A stretch of 32,000 bases of DNA from Candidatus Kuenenia stuttgartensis (GTDB taxonomy: Bacteria > Planctomycetota > Brocadiia > Brocadiales > Brocadiaceae), in assembly GCF_900232105.1 (NCBI RefSeq), contig NZ_LT934425.1, positions 3,240,001 through 3,272,000 on the forward strand. Direction: 5' to 3'. Below the pieces are notes generated by a model. It had not been told where the DNA came from. It did no database searches and saw nothing but the letters and a program-made list of their open reading frames with translations. Below are positions 5,387 through 32,000 of the stretch, in pieces. The translations under genes and the position numbers were made by a program. Each line of letters opens with the position of its first letter. Positions within the stretch are counted from its first letter, which is position 1.

Positions 5387-6529
5387 TCAAATCATTTTTT
5401 CATTAGAATTTGTTTCGGACTTCACCATTAAATATTCTACGACCTTGTCTCCCATCTGGGAGGTTAAAAGGATTTTTCCCTCTTGCGTAGTTTTATTTGC
5501 GAGATCTGCTGTCCGATAACCATTTTCCAGCGCCTTCATTATTGCCTCTTCAATAGCCTTTGATTCCCTGTTAAGGCCGAATGCATATTTTAACAGCATT
5601 GCCCCCGAGAGTATTTGCGCTAACGGATTGGCCTTATTCAGTCCGGCAATGTCAGGGGCGGAGCCATGAATGGGTTCGAAAAGCCCGAAGCCTGTTTTCG
5701 CAAGACTTGCGCTTGGAAGCATGCCAATGGAACCGGTAATGGCGGAAGCGAGATCTGACAATATGTCCCCAAACATATTCTCGGTAACTATCACGTCGAA
5801 TTGTTTTGGATTCGTTGCCAGTTGCATGGCAGCATTGTCCACATACATGTGATTAAGTTGTATCTGGGGAAAGTGGGACTGAACGTAGTCAGTGACTACC
5901 TTTCGCCATAATTTTGAACTTTCAAGGACGTTTGCTTTATCAACGGAGGTGAGTTTTTTGTTGCGTTTCATGGCGGCGTCACAGGCGACAGCCGCAATCC
6001 TTTCGATTTCCGGTACGGAATAAATCATGTAATCTACCGCGTAATTCCCCTGCAGGGCACCTTCGTGGAGGGTGAGGGTTTTTACCTTGTTTCTCCCAAA
6101 ATATATTCCTCCCGTAAGTTCCCTAACAATCAGTATGTCAAGACCTCCTTCGAGACGTTCTGATTTTAATGATGCCGCATCAGCCAACGGACCGAAAATT
6201 ATTGCGGGACGCAAGTTTGCAAATAGATTATATGTGCCCCTTAAGGGAAGCAGCGCCCCGCGTTCCGGGGTAAGTTCCGGAGGTAAATTTTCCCATTTGG
6301 GGCCTCCAACTGCGCCAAAATAGATAGCATCTGAATTGTTGCAAACTTCTTTGGTTTCATCGGGCAGGGGGTGTCCGTATTTATCGTAAGCACAACCGCC
6401 TACCAGCGCTTCTTTGTAATCAAAGATATGGTTGAATTGTTTTGCTATTGCATCCAATACTTTCAAACCCTCTTTCATTATTTCAGGGCCTATTCCGTCT
6501 CCTGCAAGCACCGCAATGCGTTTTTTCAT
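5387..6529 (-). CDS. leuB: 3-isopropylmalate dehydrogenase
   Basis: The N-terminus [13 protein letters not shown] and the internal NLRP, FGDILSD and GSAPDIAG blocks are typical of LeuB. Length is 380 aa. Confidence 0.95.
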
Positions 6530-6659
6530 TTATAAATCTCCATCTTTCATGTCATCAGCAATTAATAATTAAAAATAGAGTTTTATCTTATTTGATTAAA
6601 TAAGATTTTTTAGATAAATCGTAAACAGTGGTATTGTTCAAAAAAAACAGTGAATATGA

Positions 6660-7283
6660 TTATCGGTCGTCTTTGATTATTTCAACGGTAAAGGTATACA
6701 TTTCGATGTCTCTGTGTTTCCAGGCTTCTTTGGGCAAACCCGCTTTGCCGGAGCAACAGTGGGAAAGGAATTCTTCTTTGCTCCATCCGGTTTCAGTTGC
6801 CACCTGGGGAAGAAAACATCCTGATTGAAAGCCTTTTTTGACGTACATGCCATGTTTTCCTAATTCAAAATCAAAGGGGTCTGTGATACGTTTTAGCGGA
6901 GATAGGATGGAGAGTTCAATGTTAATTTGGTCAAGTTCAGACGAGGTAACCGGATTGTCGAAAAAACGTGAATCTTCAGTCGCTGAGGAAATTGCCACCT
7001 CAGAAACAAGCTTGTAGAGTGGAATATCAGATACAAACCGGCCAATGCAGCCACGAAGCTTTCCCCGGTTTTTTATAGTGACAAAAACACCCTGTTTTGC
7101 CTGAATATCAGGATGATCATAGGAAAAGTCCGGGGCAGGTTCTTTTTTTACCGCGGACGCGACGCTCTTTCTGGCAATTTCCAAGAGTATTTTTTTTGCA
7201 GTTTCTTCCAATAATATACTCCGATAGAGAAAAATCTGTTTAATAAGAAGCTTCAATACGTTTTGGGCAAAAACTGCAGGCAA
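6660..7283 (-). CDS. AMMECR1-domain protein (AmmeMemoRadiSam system protein A-like)
   Basis: It has the GVFVTIK...LRGCIG core motif and a C-terminal CFLPQVA...GW block. The apparent start is TTG, 6 nt after the stop of the upstream gene. Confidence 0.8.
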   Translation of the reverse strand: MPAVFAQNVLKLLIKQIFLYRSILLEETAKKILLEIARKSVASAVKKEPAPDFSYDHPDIQAKQGVFVTIKNRGKLRGCIGRFVSDIPLYKLVSEVAISSATEDSRFFDNPVTSSELDQINIELSILSPLKRITDPFDFELGKHGMYVKKGFQSGCFLPQVATETGWSKEEFLSHCCSGKAGLPKEAWKHRDIEMYTFTVEIIKDDR

Positions 7284-11748: not shown

Positions 11749-11822
11749 TACCCGGTGGTGTAATGGTAACACTAGAGATTTTGGTTCTCTCATTGGAGGT
11801 TCGAGTCCTCCCCGGGTAGCCA
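11749..11822 (+). tRNA. tRNA-Gln (anticodon UUG), CCA encoded
   Basis: Hand-folded cloverleaf. Acceptor stem: TACCCGG/CCGGGTA. D stem: GTGT/ACAC. Anticodon stem: AGAGA/TCTCT with loop TTTTGGT, giving anticodon TTG. T arm: GGAGG-TTCGAGT-CCTCC. Discriminator G followed by CCA. The U1:A72 pair is typical of bacterial tRNA-Gln. Confidence 0.9.
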
Positions 11823-24373: not shown

Positions 24374-24376
24374 ATT

Positions 24377-24604
24377 ATGGAGAAAGAAGTTCTTATTACA
24401 AAAAAAATGAGTACAGGGGAAGTGACAAAGAAATACCCTGCGACTAAAGAAGTTTTTGCAAAGTATTTTGGAAAGGGTTGTTTTGATTGCCCCTCTTTTG
24501 GTACGGAGGATATAAATTTGGCATGTATGATGCATAATACGGATGTTGATAAATTTGTGCAGGAGCTAAATGAAGCCGCATATAAGGAAATAAATAAGAC
24601 ATAA
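24377..24604 (+). CDS. DUF1858 / hybrid-cluster-protein-associated redox-disulfide-type small protein
   Basis: 75 aa matching the family pattern: I.....I.E...KYP....VF...G..C..C......T.E.A...H..D...F..ELN, with a CxxC-like pair (CFDC). GGAGGA is upstream, and the gene starts 3 nt after the preceding stop. Confidence 0.7.
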   Translation: MEKEVLITKKMSTGEVTKKYPATKEVFAKYFGKGCFDCPSFGTEDINLACMMHNTDVDKFVQELNEAAYKEINKT

Positions 24605-24697
24605 TAGTTAAATAGCCTGTGCGTCTATAAACGGAAAAATAGTTGATAAGTATATAATTTAATTTTTAAAAAGATTTAAGAGGACGATAGATAAACA

Positions 24698-25003
24698 TTG
24701 AAACATATTGACCTGCAAGAAAAAATAACATTCCACAAAGATCATTTTATTCCCAATATTCTGTATGCCTCCCCGAAAGTTAAAATGCCTCTCATTTGCA
24801 TGGAGCCGGGGCAAGTAATTCCTCCACACGGCGGGAATTCTGCAGGTATATTTTATGTGAAGGAGGGCAAAGGGATTTTTACCTTGGATGATGAGAAAAT
24901 CACAATGGAAAAAGGAATGGTTATTGTTGCGCCTGAGGGTTCTTCTCGGGGGATGAAGTGTCTTGAAAGAATGGTCGTTTTAGCAGTAAGCGCAGGAGGG
25001 TAG
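24698..25003 (+). CDS. Small single-domain cupin protein (metal-site His largely missing)
   Basis: About 100 aa with a beta-barrel cupin pattern (MEPGQVIPPHGG....IFYVKEGKG...........G..I..P). Only one His remains where the G(x)5HxH(x)3-4E motif is expected. The start is TTG, which is the only option after the in-frame TAA at 24689. Confidence 0.6.
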   Translation: MKHIDLQEKITFHKDHFIPNILYASPKVKMPLICMEPGQVIPPHGGNSAGIFYVKEGKGIFTLDDEKITMEKGMVIVAPEGSSRGMKCLERMVVLAVSAGG

Positions 25004-25013
25004 AGGTATTAAC

Positions 25014-25322
25014 ATGGGTAAAATAGTTTTAGAAGAAAAAGTAAAATTTTCACAGCAGAGTTATTTATCGGACACATTATTTAAGAGTAACAACCTCCTG
25101 CTGGAATTGTTGTGCATGGAAGAAGGCCAGGAAGTTATTTCGAAAATAACGAATTCGCAGGTAATTCTCTTAGTTGTTTCGGGCAATGGTTCTTTAACGC
25201 AGGGGTCTGATACCAGTACCCTTAAGGCGGATTCGTTAGTAATTTTTGAAGGCGTTGAACAGTTTGAAATAAAAGCAAGTAAACAAATGACTATATTGCA
25301 GTATGTTATACCGCAACCGTAA
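25014..25322 (+). CDS. Small single-domain cupin protein, paralog of the preceding gene (no His in the cupin motifs)
   Basis: It is colinear with the preceding ORF (I.L.EK..F, L.CME.GQ, V.G.G). No His is present in the motif region. Confidence 0.6.
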   Translation: MGKIVLEEKVKFSQQSYLSDTLFKSNNLLLELLCMEEGQEVISKITNSQVILLVVSGNGSLTQGSDTSTLKADSLVIFEGVEQFEIKASKQMTILQYVIPQP

Positions 25323-25347
25323 GAAATATTTTTGAGAAGGAGAATAG

Positions 25348-25584
25348 ATGAATATTGAAGACCGAATTATACTGGACGTGAGAAATATTATACCAAGAGA
25401 GCGACATCCAAAAATTTTTAATACGTTTGATGGATTAAGAGCGGGAGAGATGATGGTATTGATAAATGATCATGACCCAAAACCTTTAAAGTACCAATTA
25501 GAAGCGGAGCGTCCCGGTCAAATGGAATGGAAATATATCGAGCAAGGACCGGATATCTGGAAGGTTGAGATAGTAAAAAAATAA
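25348..25584 (+). CDS. DUF2249-domain protein
   Basis: 78 aa matching the DUF2249 pattern: LDVRN..P..RHP.IF..FD.L..GE......NDHDPKPL.YQ........W.Y...GPD.W.V.I. AAGGAG is upstream. Confidence 0.8.
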   Translation: MNIEDRIILDVRNIIPRERHPKIFNTFDGLRAGEMMVLINDHDPKPLKYQLEAERPGQMEWKYIEQGPDIWKVEIVKK

Positions 25585-25632
25585 TGGTTTTCAGCAAGGA
25601 AAATTAATTAATGTACAAAGGAGGCATAGAGT

Positions 25633-27408
25633 ATGTATAAATTTTCAAAAGTCGCAGTGGTGGTGTGCCTGTTCGTCCTTTTTGTTGGCGCATGGTTTGG
25701 TTTCAGGTCTGTACACGCAGATGCGGAAATTAACGTAAAGGAAAAAAAAGAAAAGAAAGAAAAAATTTCTTCCAAATCTGAAAAATCAGAAAAAAGGGAT
25801 GCTACCGCAGAGATAAAAGATACAAAAACCGAACAAAAGACTGTGACTCCAAAAGAAGAGAAAAAAGAAATTGTAAAGCAGGAAAAACCAGAAGAAAAAG
25901 CAGAACCACCTGCTTCTGAAAAACAGGAAGAAAAACATGCCCCTGTCGTCAAAGAAGATATGGCTGACACTCATCCTAAAGATGCCAGAACCATACAACA
26001 AATTATTTCCGAACTTACCGGAGAGAAAATCGGGCCAGACAACTCCGGAGATGTGTATCATTTAGGTTTAACAGCGACATATACGCCGCCAAAGGAATTA
26101 TTGCCTGGCGAAGGCAAATTTGGGAAATTATTTAGTTTTTTACCTCTTATGAGATGGTACGATCCTGATCATTATTATACACCAAACCAGGCAATTGGAG
26201 GTGAATTCACGCACGGCGAATGTCTTATGTGCCATACGATCCAGACCCCCGGTATTGTAGCTCAATGGAAGAAGAGTAAACATGCTGCGGTAGAACAGGT
26301 GGTTGGCTGTGATAAATGCCATGGCAACAATCACCAGCAATTATACATGCCTTCATGGCAACACTGCGGGGAGTGTCATCCGGAGCAAAAAGAAGGGCAT
26401 CGTGGTGGGGCAATGGCTTCGCACACCTATGCCTTTCATGTGAGTACAATCGAAGCCCCGTGGCAGATTGCAAAGCCTGCAGCCGAGGTTACTGCCTGTG
26501 CTACATGTCATGGGATAGCGGAGAACAGGTGTGACGGATGTCATACCAGGCATGATTTTTCCTTAGCTGAAGCAAGAAAACCAAACAATTGTGGTATTTG
26601 CCACACAGGTTTGGACCATTATGAATACGAAATGTACAGGGAATCCTATCATGGGATGATTTATGAGTCGGAGCAGCATACGTGGGACTGGACAAAACCC
26701 ATGAAACCTGAAAATTACAAAACGCCCACTTGTGCATATTGTCATATGAGAGATGGCGAACATAATGCACAGAAATTCTCCACAGTTAATAGTCACATGG
26801 GCACATCATTGGTCGACAGGGGCGCCCCAAAATATAAGGAGGCCAGACAGAGTTGGATAAACACATGCAAAGGGTGCCATTCTCCAAGATTTGCGGCTGA
26901 TCAACTTGAGGCGATGGATGAAGCGATAAAAGTCAGTTTTACAAAATGGCGTGAAGCCATGAAAATAGTGGTTGACCTTTATAATGACGGGATGCTGGAT
27001 CCGATGCCGAAAGATTTGGCGCCTGACTACGCAGGACATTATACCTTTAGTCTCATTGGTGGTGAAGGCAGGATGTATAATGTATCCGATATAGAGCGGA
27101 CGGCATTTGAGATGCTGGTGTATATTACCAATGCCGTTTACAAGGCAATGGCACACGGAGCAATGTATGGCGCTACTTATGGTAAAGGCGCTTTTCTGCA
27201 GGACCGCTGGTTGATTCAGGTAAAGGCGGAAGCAAGCAAACTTAGAAGAATAAGGGCGTTGGAAGAAAGAGTGGGGATAAAGCATAAGGCATACGATTTC
27301 TGGAAGCACGGTGAATATACCGACTTGCTCCTGGGTTGGAAGAGAAAGCCGGGAGACGTGGACAAGGCAGCATGTAAACACGAGGGCGCTGATTGTTTGG
27401 TTGAATAG
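25633..27408 (+). CDS. Octaheme hydroxylamine-oxidoreductase (HAO)-family cytochrome c, exported, with a Lys/Glu-rich N-terminal spacer
   Basis: It has eight CxxCH motifs: CLMCH, CDKCH, CGECH, CATCH, CDGCH, CGICH, CAYCH, CKGCH. The block CDGCHTRHDFSLAEARKPNNCGICHTGLDH is colinear with the HAO core. The signal peptide has a VHA|DA cleavage site. AGGAGG is upstream. Confidence 0.9.
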   Translation: MYKFSKVAVVVCLFVLFVGAWFGFRSVHADAEINVKEKKEKKEKISSKSEKSEKRDATAEIKDTKTEQKTVTPKEEKKEIVKQEKPEEKAEPPASEKQEEKHAPVVKEDMADTHPKDARTIQQIISELTGEKIGPDNSGDVYHLGLTATYTPPKELLPGEGKFGKLFSFLPLMRWYDPDHYYTPNQAIGGEFTHGECLMCHTIQTPGIVAQWKKSKHAAVEQVVGCDKCHGNNHQQLYMPSWQHCGECHPEQKEGHRGGAMASHTYAFHVSTIEAPWQIAKPAAEVTACATCHGIAENRCDGCHTRHDFSLAEARKPNNCGICHTGLDHYEYEMYRESYHGMIYESEQHTWDWTKPMKPENYKTPTCAYCHMRDGEHNAQKFSTVNSHMGTSLVDRGAPKYKEARQSWINTCKGCHSPRFAADQLEAMDEAIKVSFTKWREAMKIVVDLYNDGMLDPMPKDLAPDYAGHYTFSLIGGEGRMYNVSDIERTAFEMLVYITNAVYKAMAHGAMYGATYGKGAFLQDRWLIQVKAEASKLRRIRALEERVGIKHKAYDFWKHGEYTDLLLGWKRKPGDVDKAACKHEGADCLVE

Positions 27409-27440
27409 TATTTTAGACTTTTGATAAAGTATTGTAATAA

Positions 27441-27486
27441 ACAGAAGGTATAATGCTTAATAAAAGGTTATGCCTTCTGTTTTTTT
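27441..27486 (+). terminator. Rho-independent terminator after the HAO-like gene
   Basis: A 13-bp stem pairs ACAGAAGGTATAA (27441-27453) with TTATGCCTTCTGT (27468-27480), with one G-U pair. A T6 run follows at 27481-27486. Confidence 0.7.
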
Positions 27487-27581
27487 ATTGTTGTTTTGAC
27501 AATACAGAGATAGAATCGGGACTCCACTTTAAGCAGATTTTTGGTTATGCATGTATACGATAATAATTACAGGAGTAATAA

Positions 27582-27944
27582 ATGAAAAATTATCAATATT
27601 GTTTTTTATTCATCGCTTTTTTTTCCTCCTGTTTTTTGGGATGCTATAAAAAACAGACAATTTTACTGGAAAGAGAAGCTATTTGGGAAGTATTCGAAAG
27701 AGAATGCCAAAAATGTCATAAGATGAATGGAAAAGGGAGTCTTGTTGGCAGATTATTCTTTAATATTCCTGATTTTAACAATGTGAAATGGCAGGATAAT
27801 GCTTCGGATTCGAGATTGATTATTCATGTAGGAAATGGATTAAGAAAAATGCCAGGCTTTAAAGGCAAGCTAAAAGATGAAGAGATTGTGGACTTGGTAA
27901 AAATATGTGTTCGGAGTTTCTATCCGCCCGTCGGGCAAAGATAA
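27582..27944 (+). CDS. Monoheme class-I c-type cytochrome, probable lipoprotein
   Basis: It has a single CQKCH heme motif and a distal Met context (RKMPGF). The N-terminal hydrophobic segment ends in the lipobox-like FLGC. AGGAG is upstream. Confidence 0.75.
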   Translation: MKNYQYCFLFIAFFSSCFLGCYKKQTILLEREAIWEVFERECQKCHKMNGKGSLVGRLFFNIPDFNNVKWQDNASDSRLIIHVGNGLRKMPGFKGKLKDEEIVDLVKICVRSFYPPVGQR

Positions 27945-31441: not shown

Positions 31442-32000
31442 GGTTGAGTTGTCCCCATTTTAAATTTACCGTTGTGACTCTTCTTGGCGCTCTTTCTGCT
31501 CTTGATATTTCACATATTTACGTATCTTTTCCGTATCCAAACCAACGGTATCGACACAGTAACCTCTCGACCAGAAATGATTACCCCAATAAGGTTTTTG
31601 CTTCAAATGTCGAAACTTATTGAAAACTCGAATAGCTGTTCTGCCTTTGATTATACCTACAAAATCGGATATCGATATCTTGGGTACTACCATGACAAGC
31701 AGATGAACATGGTCAATTTGTACATTTAACTCAACAACTTCACAGCCTTTTTGTTCAGAAAATGCTCTGATACACTTACCTACTTCTTCTGCTACTTGAC
31801 CAGTAAGTATTCTTAGACGATATTTTGGTGTCCAAAGAATATGATATTGACAATGCCATATCGTATGCGATAATTTGCGAAATCGACTCATTTGTTACTC
31901 CTTTGTTGATGTTGTGGGACAACTCAACTTAGATTGTAACAATGAGTCGTTTTACTGGCAAAGCCTTTAAACTCTGACCACGCCCACAGGGCGTGGTTTT
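31442..32000 (-). mobile_element. IS200/IS605-family insertion sequence (ends not defined; may continue beyond the window)
   Basis: It contains tnpA and a 13-nt perfect inverted repeat flanking the gene (31444-31456 GTTGAGTTGTCCC versus 31916-31928 GGGACAACTCAAC). There is also a 9-bp GC-rich hairpin at 31977-31997 (ACCACGCCC-ACA-GGGCGTGGT) followed by T residues. Confidence 0.55.
31466..31891 (-). CDS. tnpA: IS200/IS605-family Y1 (HUH) transposase TnpA
   Basis: 141 aa with the HUH motif (IDHVHLLV), a C-terminal catalytic Tyr context (KYVKYQ) and W..KYR near the N-terminus. AAAGGAG is upstream. Confidence 0.9.
   Translation of the reverse strand: MSRFRKLSHTIWHCQYHILWTPKYRLRILTGQVAEEVGKCIRAFSEQKGCEVVELNVQIDHVHLLVMVVPKISISDFVGIIKGRTAIRVFNKFRHLKQKPYWGNHFWSRGYCVDTVGLDTEKIRKYVKYQEQKERQEESQR

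Follow-up and report, generated by a model that had tools for sequence, protein, structure and literature searches.

A conserved cassette of small DUF1858, cupin, and DUF2249 proteins beside the HAO paralog kusta0043 of Brocadiaceae: a candidate NO-associated module

In the anammox bacterium Candidatus Kuenenia stuttgartiensis, a cassette of four small genes of the DUF1858, cupin, and DUF2249 families lies immediately upstream of the HAO-family gene kusta0043. The explanation that we favor, and to which we give about an even chance on the strength of the sequence evidence, is that these genes form a pre-existing, NO-associated cytoplasmic module, functionally tied to an exported, NO-generating HAO. 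Such a pairing would be an addition to the known associations between NO enzymes and DUF1858–DUF2249 proteins, and it provides a testable lead on the role of an orphan paralog, kusta0043, and of small proteins of unknown function.

Gene Content of the Cassette

A preliminary description of the window (the whole stretch of 32,000 nucleotides that was analyzed) had located six open reading frames on a single strand, and all six are present there, on the plus strand:

24377..24604, plus strand: DUF1858 / TIGR03980 redox-disulfide-domain protein, 75 aa (HMM matches)
24698..25003, plus strand: cupin A, 101 aa, TTG start (Cupin_2, 39.3 bits)
25014..25322, plus strand: cupin B, 102 aa (sub-threshold cupin matches only)
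25348..25584, plus strand: DUF2249 protein, 78 aa (PF10006, 101.7 bits)
25633..27408, plus strand: kusta0043 (KsCSTR_40830), octahaem HAO paralog, 591 aa (Multi-haem_cyto and Hao_C)
25633-25719, plus strand: signal peptide of kusta0043, approximately residues 1-29 (hydropathy and motif inspection)
25720-25986, plus strand: K/E-rich linker of kusta0043, residues 30-118
Residues 119-591 of kusta0043: catalytic core
27439..27490, plus strand: intrinsic terminator, probable end of the HAO transcription unit (hairpin and U run)
27582..27944, plus strand: monohaem cytochrome c, 120 aa (Cytochrome_CBB3, 40.8 bits)

Successive gaps, from the Gfo/Idh–DUF1858 junction to the HAO–cytochrome c junction, measure 3, 93, 10, 25, 48, and 173 nt, and a Shine-Dalgarno sequence precedes every gene. 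The families first proposed for the small proteins were borne out by HMM search, with cupin B matching only below threshold (Pfam cut-offs, in bits: DUF1858, 32.2; Cupin_2, 27.2; DUF2249, 29.5; Cytochrome_CBB3, 27; and, for TIGR03980, 44.95). Signal-peptide and lipoprotein calls were made by inspection of hydropathy and motifs. As had been described, the N-terminus is hydrophobic in just two of the proteins, the HAO (Kyte-Doolittle maximum over 15 residues, 2.88) and the cytochrome c (2.23); the four small proteins reach at most 1.65, with no peak at the N-terminus, and look cytoplasmic.

The DUF1858 protein matches its Pfam family (E 3.9e-13, 49.7 bits), the TIGR03980 "hybrid cluster protein-associated redox disulfide domain" (53.4 bits) and, weakly, ScdA_N. 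Its sequence is near-invariant among 40 distinct anammox sequences, with C35-x-x-C38 and C50 invariant in the anammox orthologs, and its nearest PDB relatives are two NMR structures of uncharacterized proteins (2k53, 2k5e). A CxxU selenoprotein version of DUF1858 exists, and the motif is therefore argued to be redox-active (PMC9312934). Operon membership of this gene had been called ambiguous, a point that comparison settles: in 13 of the Brocadiaceae species genomes, only 1-2 nt separate it from the cupin A gene downstream, and it is a member of the cassette. An AhbD/NirJ-like radical-SAM/SPASM gene is found immediately 5' of the cassette throughout the Brocadiaceae, with K. stuttgartiensis as the one exception, and the 3-nt Gfo/Idh–DUF1858 junction is thus due to a deletion of this gene that is specific to K. 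stuttgartiensis. Since the radical-SAM gene and Gfo/Idh overlap by 4 nt, with the largest gap falling before DUF1858, the former belongs to the upstream unit. The TATAAT reported in the gap downstream of DUF1858 (24653-24658) is present, but without a usable -35 element, and a promoter scan missed it.

In cupin A, which is 72-86% identical among Brocadiaceae, the metal site is degenerate: H44 alone is left of the canonical His/His/Glu/His set, and the HxH...E...H of its top PDB match, 2q30, is replaced by HGG...R. The cupin HMM matches of cupin B have E-values of 0.012-0.055, although its Jettenia ortholog does match Cupin_2. Judged by its sequence, cupin B is a fast-evolving, degenerate cupin paralog without metal ligands; its identity to cupin A is 25-30%, and its orthologs are 40-67% identical. 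Of the 36 cassette loci of Brocadiaceae, 10 retain it (three Kuenenia, Jettenia, Loosdrechtia, and five other Brocadiaceae); it is missing from the other 26, which include all named Brocadia species. The DUF2249 protein has invariant residues at H20, D28, N40-D41-H42-D43-P44, Y49, E54, W61, and Y63, and homologs that are 55-70% identical occur in other phyla. A TusA/SirA-like alpha/beta fold is predicted for it from an AF2 model (pLDDT 88), whose best same-size matches, 3hz7 and 1jdq, are weak (E 0.03-0.08, TM 0.62-0.67).

The HAO Paralog and Its Transcription Unit

With its eight CxxCH motifs and a tyrosine, Y516, that aligns with the cross-link residue Tyr467 of NeHAO, kusta0043 is an oxidative-type HAO. 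Lysine and glutamate make up 46% of its linker. Its PDB matches are stronger to HOX (6t5e and 4n4j, E ~1e-180) than to HDH (1e-119), it scores 444 bits against the HDH HMM, whose cut-off is 900, and in a neighbor-joining tree its clade is distinct from both. Both 4n4j (kustc1061) and 6t5e are hydroxylamine:NO oxidoreductases. Being nearer to HOX than to HDH, kusta0043 has hydroxylamine as its likelier substrate, and the choice between hydroxylamine and hydrazine that had been left by the preliminary description tilts accordingly. From these features, it is most likely an exported, Tyr-cross-linked (P460) octahaem enzyme that converts hydroxylamine to NO. In one metatranscriptome, its expression was about one tenth that of HOX. 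The name kusta0043 was assigned by the length given in one study (PMC3482989) and the tag mapping in another (PMC12053348).

The terminator noted earlier downstream of the HAO is real: a hairpin at 27439-27482 is followed by a U run, and its interrupted 19-bp stem (16 + 3 pairs; -23.2 kcal/mol) has a z-score of -3.77, with none of 200 shuffles equally stable. No comparable hairpin is found in the gaps at 24605-24697 and 25585-25632, and a single transcript probably spans the cassette and the HAO and stops at the 27439-27490 terminator. The cytochrome c, which had been counted with the cassette, has to be removed from it, as it adjoins the HAO in Kuenenia only (loci L001-L005 and L010-L012) and lies beyond the terminator. 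Its N-terminus is hydrophobic, with a conserved lipobox-like ..F[LWF]GC.. motif, and its transcript is probably separate from that of the HAO.

Conservation of the Neighborhood

When the neighborhood was followed through related genomes, a check that had been proposed for this locus, 36 of the 37 informative species genomes of Brocadiaceae proved to have the cassette immediately 5' of the HAO. This order has outlasted the loss of cupin B, the deletion of the radical-SAM gene, insertions, and a full turnover of the downstream genes; at one locus (L058), an upstream rearrangement has left the DUF2249–HAO pair alone. A reversed order occurs in GWA2_40_7 and MHYQ01, where an HAO of a different sub-clade is followed, after about 90 nt without a terminator, by DUF1858, cupin A, cupin B, and DUF2249. 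Counted as a second, independent adjacency, this arrangement suggests a link, but the two orders could come from one ancestral HAO–cassette–HAO arrangement and not from two events.

The earlier idea of an HAO-coupled module therefore stands as regards the conserved adjacency, but the cassette is autonomous, widespread, and not specific to HAO. It adjoins dnaA, without HAO, in two relatives of these genomes (L076 and L077), and it also has no HAO neighbor in Subterrananammoxibius (whose HAOs are on another contig), GCA_040961595.1, and L068; a Trueperaceae metagenome contig carries DUF1858, cupin, DUF2249, and cupin genes without HAO. Conversely, no cassette was found within 8 kb of the kusta0043-clade HAOs of Scalinduaceae, Subterrananammoxibius, and other Brocadiales. 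The module is most likely self-contained and older than its placement beside HAO. In addition, conservation in Brocadiaceae is equally strong for the lipid A genes farther upstream (lpxC-lpxA-gfo), and within this family synteny by itself cannot tell functional coupling from inheritance. Lipid A synteny, cassette-free HAOs, and HAO-free cassettes all weigh against our explanation.

The same observations could mean that cassette and HAO are neighbors with no functional link, the former being a general cytoplasmic redox/nitrosative-stress module with its own regulation and an inherited gene order like that of the lipid A genes. Consistent with this, AT-rich, promoter-like stretches precede DUF1858 in most genomes, and the DUF2249–HAO gap reaches 80-180 nt in some. 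We nevertheless regard this possibility as rather doubtful: synteny is broken right after the HAO but never between cassette and HAO (36 genomes), no terminator separates them, the DUF2249–HAO pair survived rearrangement in L058, and the reversed adjacency involves another HAO sub-clade. Moreover, with about 10 HAO among about 4000 genes, we roughly infer that random placement beside an HAO has a probability of about 0.5% per event.

NO-Related Contexts of DUF1858 and DUF2249

HMM searches, gene loci, and the literature all support the association of DUF1858 and DUF2249 with NO, hybrid-cluster-protein, and RIC-type contexts that the preliminary description had named. It was also not aware of any described partnership with HAO, and indeed the searchable literature yielded none, in anammox bacteria or for any HAO. 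Among related loci, one groups a NorB-like COX1, NnrS, and two DUF2249 genes (L063); another combines Crp/Fnr, DUF1858, DUF59, a DrpB-like protein, DUF2249, and hemerythrin; and a third (L154) contains Rrf2, NirK, DUF2249, DUF1858, and DUF2249, adjoining cupin, DUF59, IscS, and IscU. Across 73 non-anammox metagenome loci, DUF59 is present in 30, a DrpB-like protein in 26, and Crp/Fnr in 14. We know of no ligand or activity for any of the four small-protein families. We take COG4309, from its COG annotation, to be DUF2249. COG4309 is co-transcribed with norB in the NnrR and NsrR regulons (PMC1274295). Similarly, the DUF1858 gene bsl7085, which adjoins nirK, is NnrR-dependent (-29-fold in the mutant; PMC6710368), and DUF2249 genes are induced by 3-9 log2 during denitrification in Haloferax (PMC11218638).

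In DrpB, DUF1858 is fused to two DUF2249 domains, a Rosetta-stone case that supports a partnership of these domains. In Thermus, drpAB mutants are deregulated in nitrate respiration, and deletion of drpA/drpB makes nar and dnr expression nitrate-independent (PMC6282519). This raises the alternative that the DUF1858 and DUF2249 proteins are N-oxide sensors that regulate the transcription of HAO and other N-cycle genes, as has been proposed for DrpA/DrpB, with no protection or repair. Many related modules are flanked by Crp/Fnr or Rrf2 regulators, and the strong conservation of both proteins suggests conserved partners. However, a transcription factor gene was in or beside the cassette at none of the anammox loci examined, the cassette proteins have no DNA-binding domain, and DUF59, IscS/IscU, and hemerythrin, all frequent partners, suggest the handling of metal centers rather than signaling. 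Purely regulatory action is thus improbable in our estimation.

Proposed Mechanism

According to the explanation that we favor, the core of the module would be the DUF1858 redox-disulfide protein and the DUF2249 protein, together with one or two metal-site-degenerate cupins. Such modules accompany NO-making or NO-consuming enzymes in bacteria and archaea, and in Brocadiaceae the module would have been set immediately 5' of the kusta0043-type HAO. As the NO-generating HAO is expressed outside the cytoplasm, a cytoplasmic DUF1858–DUF2249(–cupin) complex would be co-expressed and would sense or buffer membrane-permeant NO (or NH2OH) by means of CxxC/Cys thiols in DUF1858 and a His/Asp pocket in DUF2249. 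Fe-S/metal centers might thereby be protected or repaired, or a signal passed to regulators, as proposed for DrpA/DrpB. It speaks against this explanation that, to our knowledge, such neighbors are known neither for the dominant NO-forming HOX (kustc1061) nor for HDH.

Of the three roles first suggested (sensing, protection, and maturation), maturation is the least supported. C-type haem is attached after export, and the Tyr cross-link is formed between subunits of the assembled trimer; both steps are therefore beyond the reach of cytoplasmic proteins. That the small proteins and the radical-SAM/SPASM enzyme ready the HAO cofactor or polypeptide before export is highly improbable, despite the position of the latter gene and the DUF59 and Fe-S assembly genes of related modules, because that gene belongs to the upstream unit and was lost from K. 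stuttgartiensis with the HAO still intact and expressed, the cassette occurs in contexts without any multihaem protein, and HOX and HDH bear the same cofactor with no such partners known.

Comparison with Known Systems

HOX (kustc1061, PDB 4n4j; Brocadia fulgida, 6t5e) and kusta0043 have a common fold and haem set, with eight CxxCH motifs, the cross-link tyrosine, and the Hao_C tail in both, and they are about 51% identical over the trimmed catalytic-core alignment. In contrast to HOX, kusta0043-type HAOs have an extra low-complexity N-terminal linker of 60-100 residues, and those of Brocadia, Jettenia, and Loosdrechtia may also be lipid-anchored; kusta0043 is a predicted enzyme that has never been purified.

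The di-iron Fe-S repair proteins RIC/ScdA/YtfE are part of NO stress regulons, and their N-terminal ScdA_N is related to DUF1858. There is no hemerythrin-like di-iron domain in or near the anammox cassette, which therefore does not represent a RIC protein.

Thermus thermophilus DrpA (DUF2249) and DrpB (DUF1858 and two DUF2249 domains) resemble the cassette in that both domain families are encoded together; the drpAB operon lies 3' of the nar operon, and both systems adjoin a respiratory N-oxide enzyme (PMC6282519). Loss of DrpA/DrpB changes N-oxide-dependent regulation in Thermus. In Kuenenia, by contrast, each domain is a protein of its own, there are two cupins besides, the partner is an octahaem HAO instead of nitrate reductase, and DnrS/DnrT-type regulators are not near the cassette. 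The Kuenenia proteins also look cytoplasmic, whereas DrpA is reported to be periplasmic and DrpB membrane-bound (PMC6282519), which argues against a Drp-like sensor; the periplasmic DrpA also counts against our explanation.

In the NO regulons of denitrifiers, the small proteins likewise adjoin NO-making or NO-consuming enzymes, with bsl7085 beside nnrR-nirK in Bradyrhizobium and DUF2249 genes in the nirK/nor/nar clusters of Haloferax (PMC1274295; PMC6710368; PMC11218638). This pattern recurs at L063, with NorB-like and NnrS genes, and at L154, with Rrf2 and NirK. The small genes of the denitrifier regulons are co-regulated with their NO enzymes, which are Cu or haem-copper proteins, unlike the octahaem HAO of Kuenenia.

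Gene Content of the Locus and Identity of the HAO

The window is from Candidatus Kuenenia stuttgartiensis. All six open reading frames that the preliminary description had claimed for a single strand were found, and the locus reads as follows:

24377–24604 (+), DUF1858 protein
24698–25003 (+), cupin A
25014–25322 (+), cupin B
25348–25584 (+), DUF2249 protein
25633–27408 (+), HAO under study, 591 aa
27439–27490, terminator
27582–27944 (+), monohaem cytochrome c

The 591-aa HAO adjoining the DUF2249 gene is KsCSTR_40830, or kusta0043. A motif scan identified eight CxxCH motifs in the HAO arrangement (residues 197, 226, 245, 289, 300, 320, 367, and 412), and profile HMMs scored 143 bits for Multi-haem_cyto and 44 bits for Hao_C. 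Counted from the alignment, Y516 corresponds to residue 467 of chain 4fas_A of NeHAO; it also matches the equivalent tyrosine in the hydroxylamine:NO oxidoreductase kustc1061 (HOX) and in hydrazine dehydrogenase (HDH), and is kept in all 23 sequences compared. Tyr467 of NeHAO forms the cross-link with the catalytic haem on the adjacent subunit. The cross-link tyrosine is a marker of oxidative HAOs (PMC8042395). By its haem motifs and this tyrosine, kusta0043 is a predicted member of the oxidative (P460) subclass of the HAO family.

A hydroxylamine- or hydrazine-oxidizing activity had been proposed; of the two substrates, hydroxylamine is the more likely for kusta0043. Among solved structures, it is closest to two hydroxylamine:NO oxidoreductases, 6t5e and 4n4j (E ~1e-180), with HDH farther away. 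Identification as HDH was rejected: the score was 444.5 bits against an equivalog cut-off of 900 for NF052343, and in the trimmed core kusta0043 shares 41% of its residues with 6hif. Nor was kusta0043 retained as a HOX ortholog: in a neighbor-joining tree, it forms with its Brocadiaceae orthologs a clade apart from kustc1061, to which it is 51% identical.

The kusta0043-type HAOs (window and loci L016, L018, L015, L007, and L040) carry a low-complexity N-terminal linker of 60–100 residues, rich in K/E/P/A, that is missing from HOX; in Kuenenia it spans residues 30–118 (window 25720–25986) and is 46% Lys+Glu. In the HAOs of Brocadia, Jettenia, and Loosdrechtia, the linker is preceded by a conserved lipobox-like cysteine (..LFGCIQ[FL]GCEQ..), which suggests that these enzymes are tethered via a putative lipoprotein anchor. 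The Kuenenia protein has a VHA↓D-type cleavage site in place of this cysteine. In one published metatranscriptome, expression of kusta0043 was about one tenth of the HOX level, and in a published transcriptome KsCSTR_40830, the sole gene of the neighborhood listed, was down by ~1.8 log2 on hydrazine exposure. In assembly GCA_015075145.1 (L005, 10286–12061), the HAO DNA is 100% identical to that of the window, yet the gene table of that assembly has no called gene there.

The Small Proteins of the Cassette

Profile HMMs agreed with the family assignments made previously for DUF1858, DUF2249, cupin A (Cupin_2), the HAO (Multi-haem_cyto and Hao_C), and the class I cytochrome c; the second cupin fell below threshold in Kuenenia. 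The DUF1858 protein scored 49.7 bits with PF08984 (cut-off 32.2) and 53.4 with TIGR03980 (cut-off 44.95), the latter being the "hybrid cluster protein-associated redox disulfide domain." Its C35xxC38 motif is invariant in 40 sequences of anammox orthologs, in which a third cysteine is also kept. A CxxU selenoprotein form of DUF1858 exists (PMC9312934), which supports redox chemistry at the CxxC.

The DUF2249 protein matched PF10006 with 101.7 bits (cut-off 29.5) over profile positions 2–70 of 70. The same 78-aa sequence, whose cluster is named KsCSTR_40840, recurs with unchanged gene order in strain CSTR1 (CP049055.1), in GCA_900232175.1, and in further assemblies. Identity across phyla is 55–70%, with H20, D28, N40-D41-H42-D43-P44, Y49, and E54 invariant. 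AF2 gave a confident model (pLDDT 88) of beta-alpha-beta-alpha-beta-beta topology, for which Foldseek returned weak matches throughout, among them SirA/TusA-like proteins; matches to methyltransferases were set aside as partial Rossmann-like overlaps, and a search of the PDB with the sequence gave no match.

Cupin A scored 39.3 bits with Cupin_2 (PF07883; cut-off 27.2). Kuenenia cupin B reached 13.9 bits against the same cut-off, which its Jettenia and Subterrananammoxibius orthologs exceed, and by its sequence it is a diverged paralog of cupin A. Of the canonical His/His/Glu/His metal ligands, cupin A retains only H44 (compared with 2q30) and cupin B none. The TTG start of cupin A at window 24698 is backed by ortholog alignment; a Shine-Dalgarno-like AAGAGGA lies unusually far from it, ~15 nt on the 5′ side.

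Export and Transcription Signals

Hydropathy supported the expectation that, among the six proteins, only the HAO and the cytochrome c are exported. The terminator described after the HAO gene is a stable hairpin followed by a U run, and no comparable hairpin was found in the internal gaps of the stretch from DUF1858 to the HAO. The signals in 24377–27408 are consistent with a single transcript: the genes share a strand and are closely spaced, and the only terminator is the one behind the HAO. Cassette and HAO probably share a transcript in Brocadiaceae. Upstream of DUF1858, no FNR- or NsrR-like palindrome was recognized by eye in 40 loci, which contain only AT-rich, lineage-specific stretches in this region. 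In a sigma-70 scan, sites were no more frequent than in shuffles (26 vs. 23.3), and an Rfam scan of the window returned only the tRNA at 11749–11819.

Conservation of the Locus in Brocadiaceae

Among GTDB species representatives, a scan identified 53 HAO loci. Conservation of the neighborhood in related genomes was upheld: the order lpxC, lpxA, Gfo/Idh, radical-SAM/SPASM gene (rSAM), DUF1858, cupin A, (cupin B), DUF2249, HAO is kept in 36 of the 37 informative Brocadiaceae loci, which cover Kuenenia, Brocadia, Jettenia, Loosdrechtia, and unnamed genera. The Gfo/Idh protein is UDP-GlcNAc 3-dehydrogenase-like. Cupin B is missing from 26 of 36 Brocadiaceae loci, including those of all named Brocadia species. 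At one locus (L058), a rearrangement swapped everything upstream, and the DUF2249–HAO pair stayed together.

The membership of DUF1858 in the operon, previously considered ambiguous, is settled by the pattern of gaps across Brocadiaceae. A 4-nt overlap of the Gfo/Idh and rSAM genes is the rule, the widest regular gap is that from rSAM to DUF1858, and DUF1858 and cupin A are separated by 1–2 nt in 13 Brocadiaceae species genomes; DUF1858 therefore belongs to the cassette. Every Brocadiaceae genome but that of K. stuttgartiensis has the rSAM gene in the interval from Gfo/Idh to DUF1858 (41 loci; for example, 5447–6688 in the Jettenia locus L007). In K. stuttgartiensis it has been cleanly deleted (junction at window 24374–24376), and Kuenenia sp. 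Bin_40 (L010) has a 73-aa remnant. With 158 bits for AhbD and 140 for NirJ2, its best matches, rSAM stays below the cut-off of 500, and it was not accepted as a genuine AhbD or NirJ.

The monohaem cytochrome c had been counted in the cassette, a placement that did not hold: among the Brocadiaceae loci compared, it follows the HAO in Kuenenia only, and it lies outside the conserved unit because it is genus-specific and behind the terminator. In that genus, it might accept electrons from the HAO.

More generally, the genes 3′ of the HAO vary among Brocadiaceae genera. In Jettenia (L007/L008, 10599–14708), they encode a SLAC1/TehA-type transporter and two FocA/NirC nitrite/formate channels, along with a small, oppositely oriented ScdA_N/DUF1858-like gene, a set that is not kept in other genera. 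In many Brocadia and Jettenia assemblies (L013, L014, L017, L018, L020, L021, L025, L027, L028, L030, and L037), the contig ends 0.3–1 kb past the HAO, and there may be a repeat or variable region directly 3′ of it. Farther on, at window 31466–31891 (−), is an ORF of 141 aa for an IS200/IS605-type Y1 transposase, also present in GCA_900232175.1 (L003, 16119–16544); it is absent from the same site in strain CSTR1 (L002), so this insertion varies between strains.

Cassette and HAO Outside Brocadiaceae

The cassette had been regarded as an accessory coupled to HAO, and this specificity has to be abandoned. In Scalinduaceae, Subterrananammoxibius, and other Brocadiales, no cassette was found within 8 kb of the HAOs of the kusta0043 clade, HMM search included. 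In Subterrananammoxibius it is on a different contig from the HAO; elsewhere it occurs alone (GCA_040961595.1), beside dnaA (L076/L077), or in a version without DUF1858 (L068). This separation in other lineages favors the main rival explanation, namely that cassette and HAO are adjacent without any functional relationship, as does the fact that the upstream lipid A genes are equally syntenic. However, in GWA2_40_7 (L151) and MHYQ01 (L152), an HAO lies ~90 nt 5′ of DUF1858–cupin A–cupin B–DUF2249, on the same strand and with no terminator in the gap. This HAO belongs to a different sub-clade, with eight haems and the tyrosine kept and the linker absent. Because two gene orders occur with two HAO sub-clades, inheritance alone is hard to accept as an explanation, although both orders could possibly have come from one ancestral HAO–cassette–HAO arrangement by differential loss. 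We consider adjacency without function unlikely, while still a serious contender.

Association with NO-Related Genes

The association of DUF1858 and DUF2249 with NO-related genes, noted in the preliminary description, is borne out by metagenome contexts and by published studies. Non-anammox contexts of the closest DUF2249 genes include an adjoining NorB-like oxidase and NnrS; a group with Crp/Fnr, DUF1858, DUF59, a DrpB-like fusion, and hemerythrin; and a Trueperaceae metagenome contig with DUF1858, cupin, DUF2249, and cupin. On one metagenome contig (L154, 4798–8066), an Rrf2 regulator, a NirK-type copper nitrite reductase, DUF2249, DUF1858, and DUF2249 are divergent from genes for an unknown protein, DUF59, a cupin, YwiC, IscS, and IscU, a content that links the module both to the making of NO and to the assembly of Fe-S clusters. 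When all ORFs of 73 non-anammox metagenome loci were searched with probes, the recurrent partners were DUF59 (30 loci), DrpB-like proteins (26), a ~450-aa unannotated protein (23), and Crp/Fnr (14). The unannotated protein (440–460 aa) is encoded between the DrpB-like and DUF2249 genes (L065, 5646–7004; L066, 4543–5865 (−); L153, 5532–6908); it has no Pfam family and a faint match to cbb3 oxidase subunit I.

Similarly, norB and COG4309 are co-transcribed in NO regulons (PMC1274295), a DUF1858 gene adjoining nirK depends on NnrR (PMC6710368), and haloarchaeal denitrification induces DUF2249 genes (PMC11218638). In line with the preliminary description, which was aware of no partnership with HAO, no paper in the searchable literature ties the DUF1858/DUF2249 families to anammox or to the neighbors of kusta0043.

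A Possible Role for the Cassette

To our knowledge, roles have been assigned to only three (HDH, HOX, and HAOr) of the approximately ten HAO paralogs of anammox genomes. kusta0043 is a conserved, expressed orphan, and its family-wide link to an NO-associated module leads to the hypothesis of an NO- or NH2OH-responsive unit. In the reading that we prefer, and for which belief and doubt are about evenly balanced, an old, autonomous cytoplasmic module associated with NO would have been joined in Brocadiaceae to an exported, NO-forming HAO, with a transcript that is probably shared. Production of the HAO would then go along with that of a cytoplasmic NO-sensing or NO-protecting complex. The original observation is thereby confirmed, and its interpretation, a sensing, protection, or maturation module for an N-oxide coupled to an exported HAO, is partly supported: NO sensing or protection is favored and maturation least so, with corrections on HAO specificity, DUF1858 membership, cytochrome c, and substrate.

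A wider proposal, speculative and rather doubtful in this full form, is that DUF1858–DUF2249(–cupin) is a universal cytoplasmic companion complex for respiratory enzymes that generate or consume NO (NirK, NorB, and anammox HAO). It would bind NO or NO-derived iron/thiol species and either protect Fe-S centers or signal the flux of NO. Brocadiaceae would express it along with a membrane-tethered hydroxylamine-to-NO oxidase, which would depend on it to run safely. If true, this would assign a first function to kusta0043 and to two large DUF families.

Comparison with Known Systems

The cassette is not a RIC/ScdA/YtfE system: FeS_repair_RIC scored 14 bits against a cut-off of 204.7, and a hemerythrin gene was present in none of the anammox loci examined. 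Its domain families are those of the Drp system of Thermus, in which DrpA and DrpB modulate nitrate respiration (PMC6282519). However, DrpB fuses DUF1858 to two DUF2249 domains and is adjoined by nar/dnr, whereas the window encodes separate proteins in a locus without nar/dnr. A purely regulatory, Drp-like role of the small proteins is improbable, and a role in maturation still more so; both are less supported than the preferred joining of an NO-associated module to the HAO, and than adjacency without function. With the HAO, the known partners of the widespread DUF2249 and DUF1858 families extend from denitrification enzymes to an octahaem HAO, which adds weight to the view that NO itself, and not one particular enzyme, is what these proteins handle. 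The locus is of an already known kind, that of DUF2249/DUF1858 accessory genes beside N-oxide enzymes, and here the partner is an HAO.
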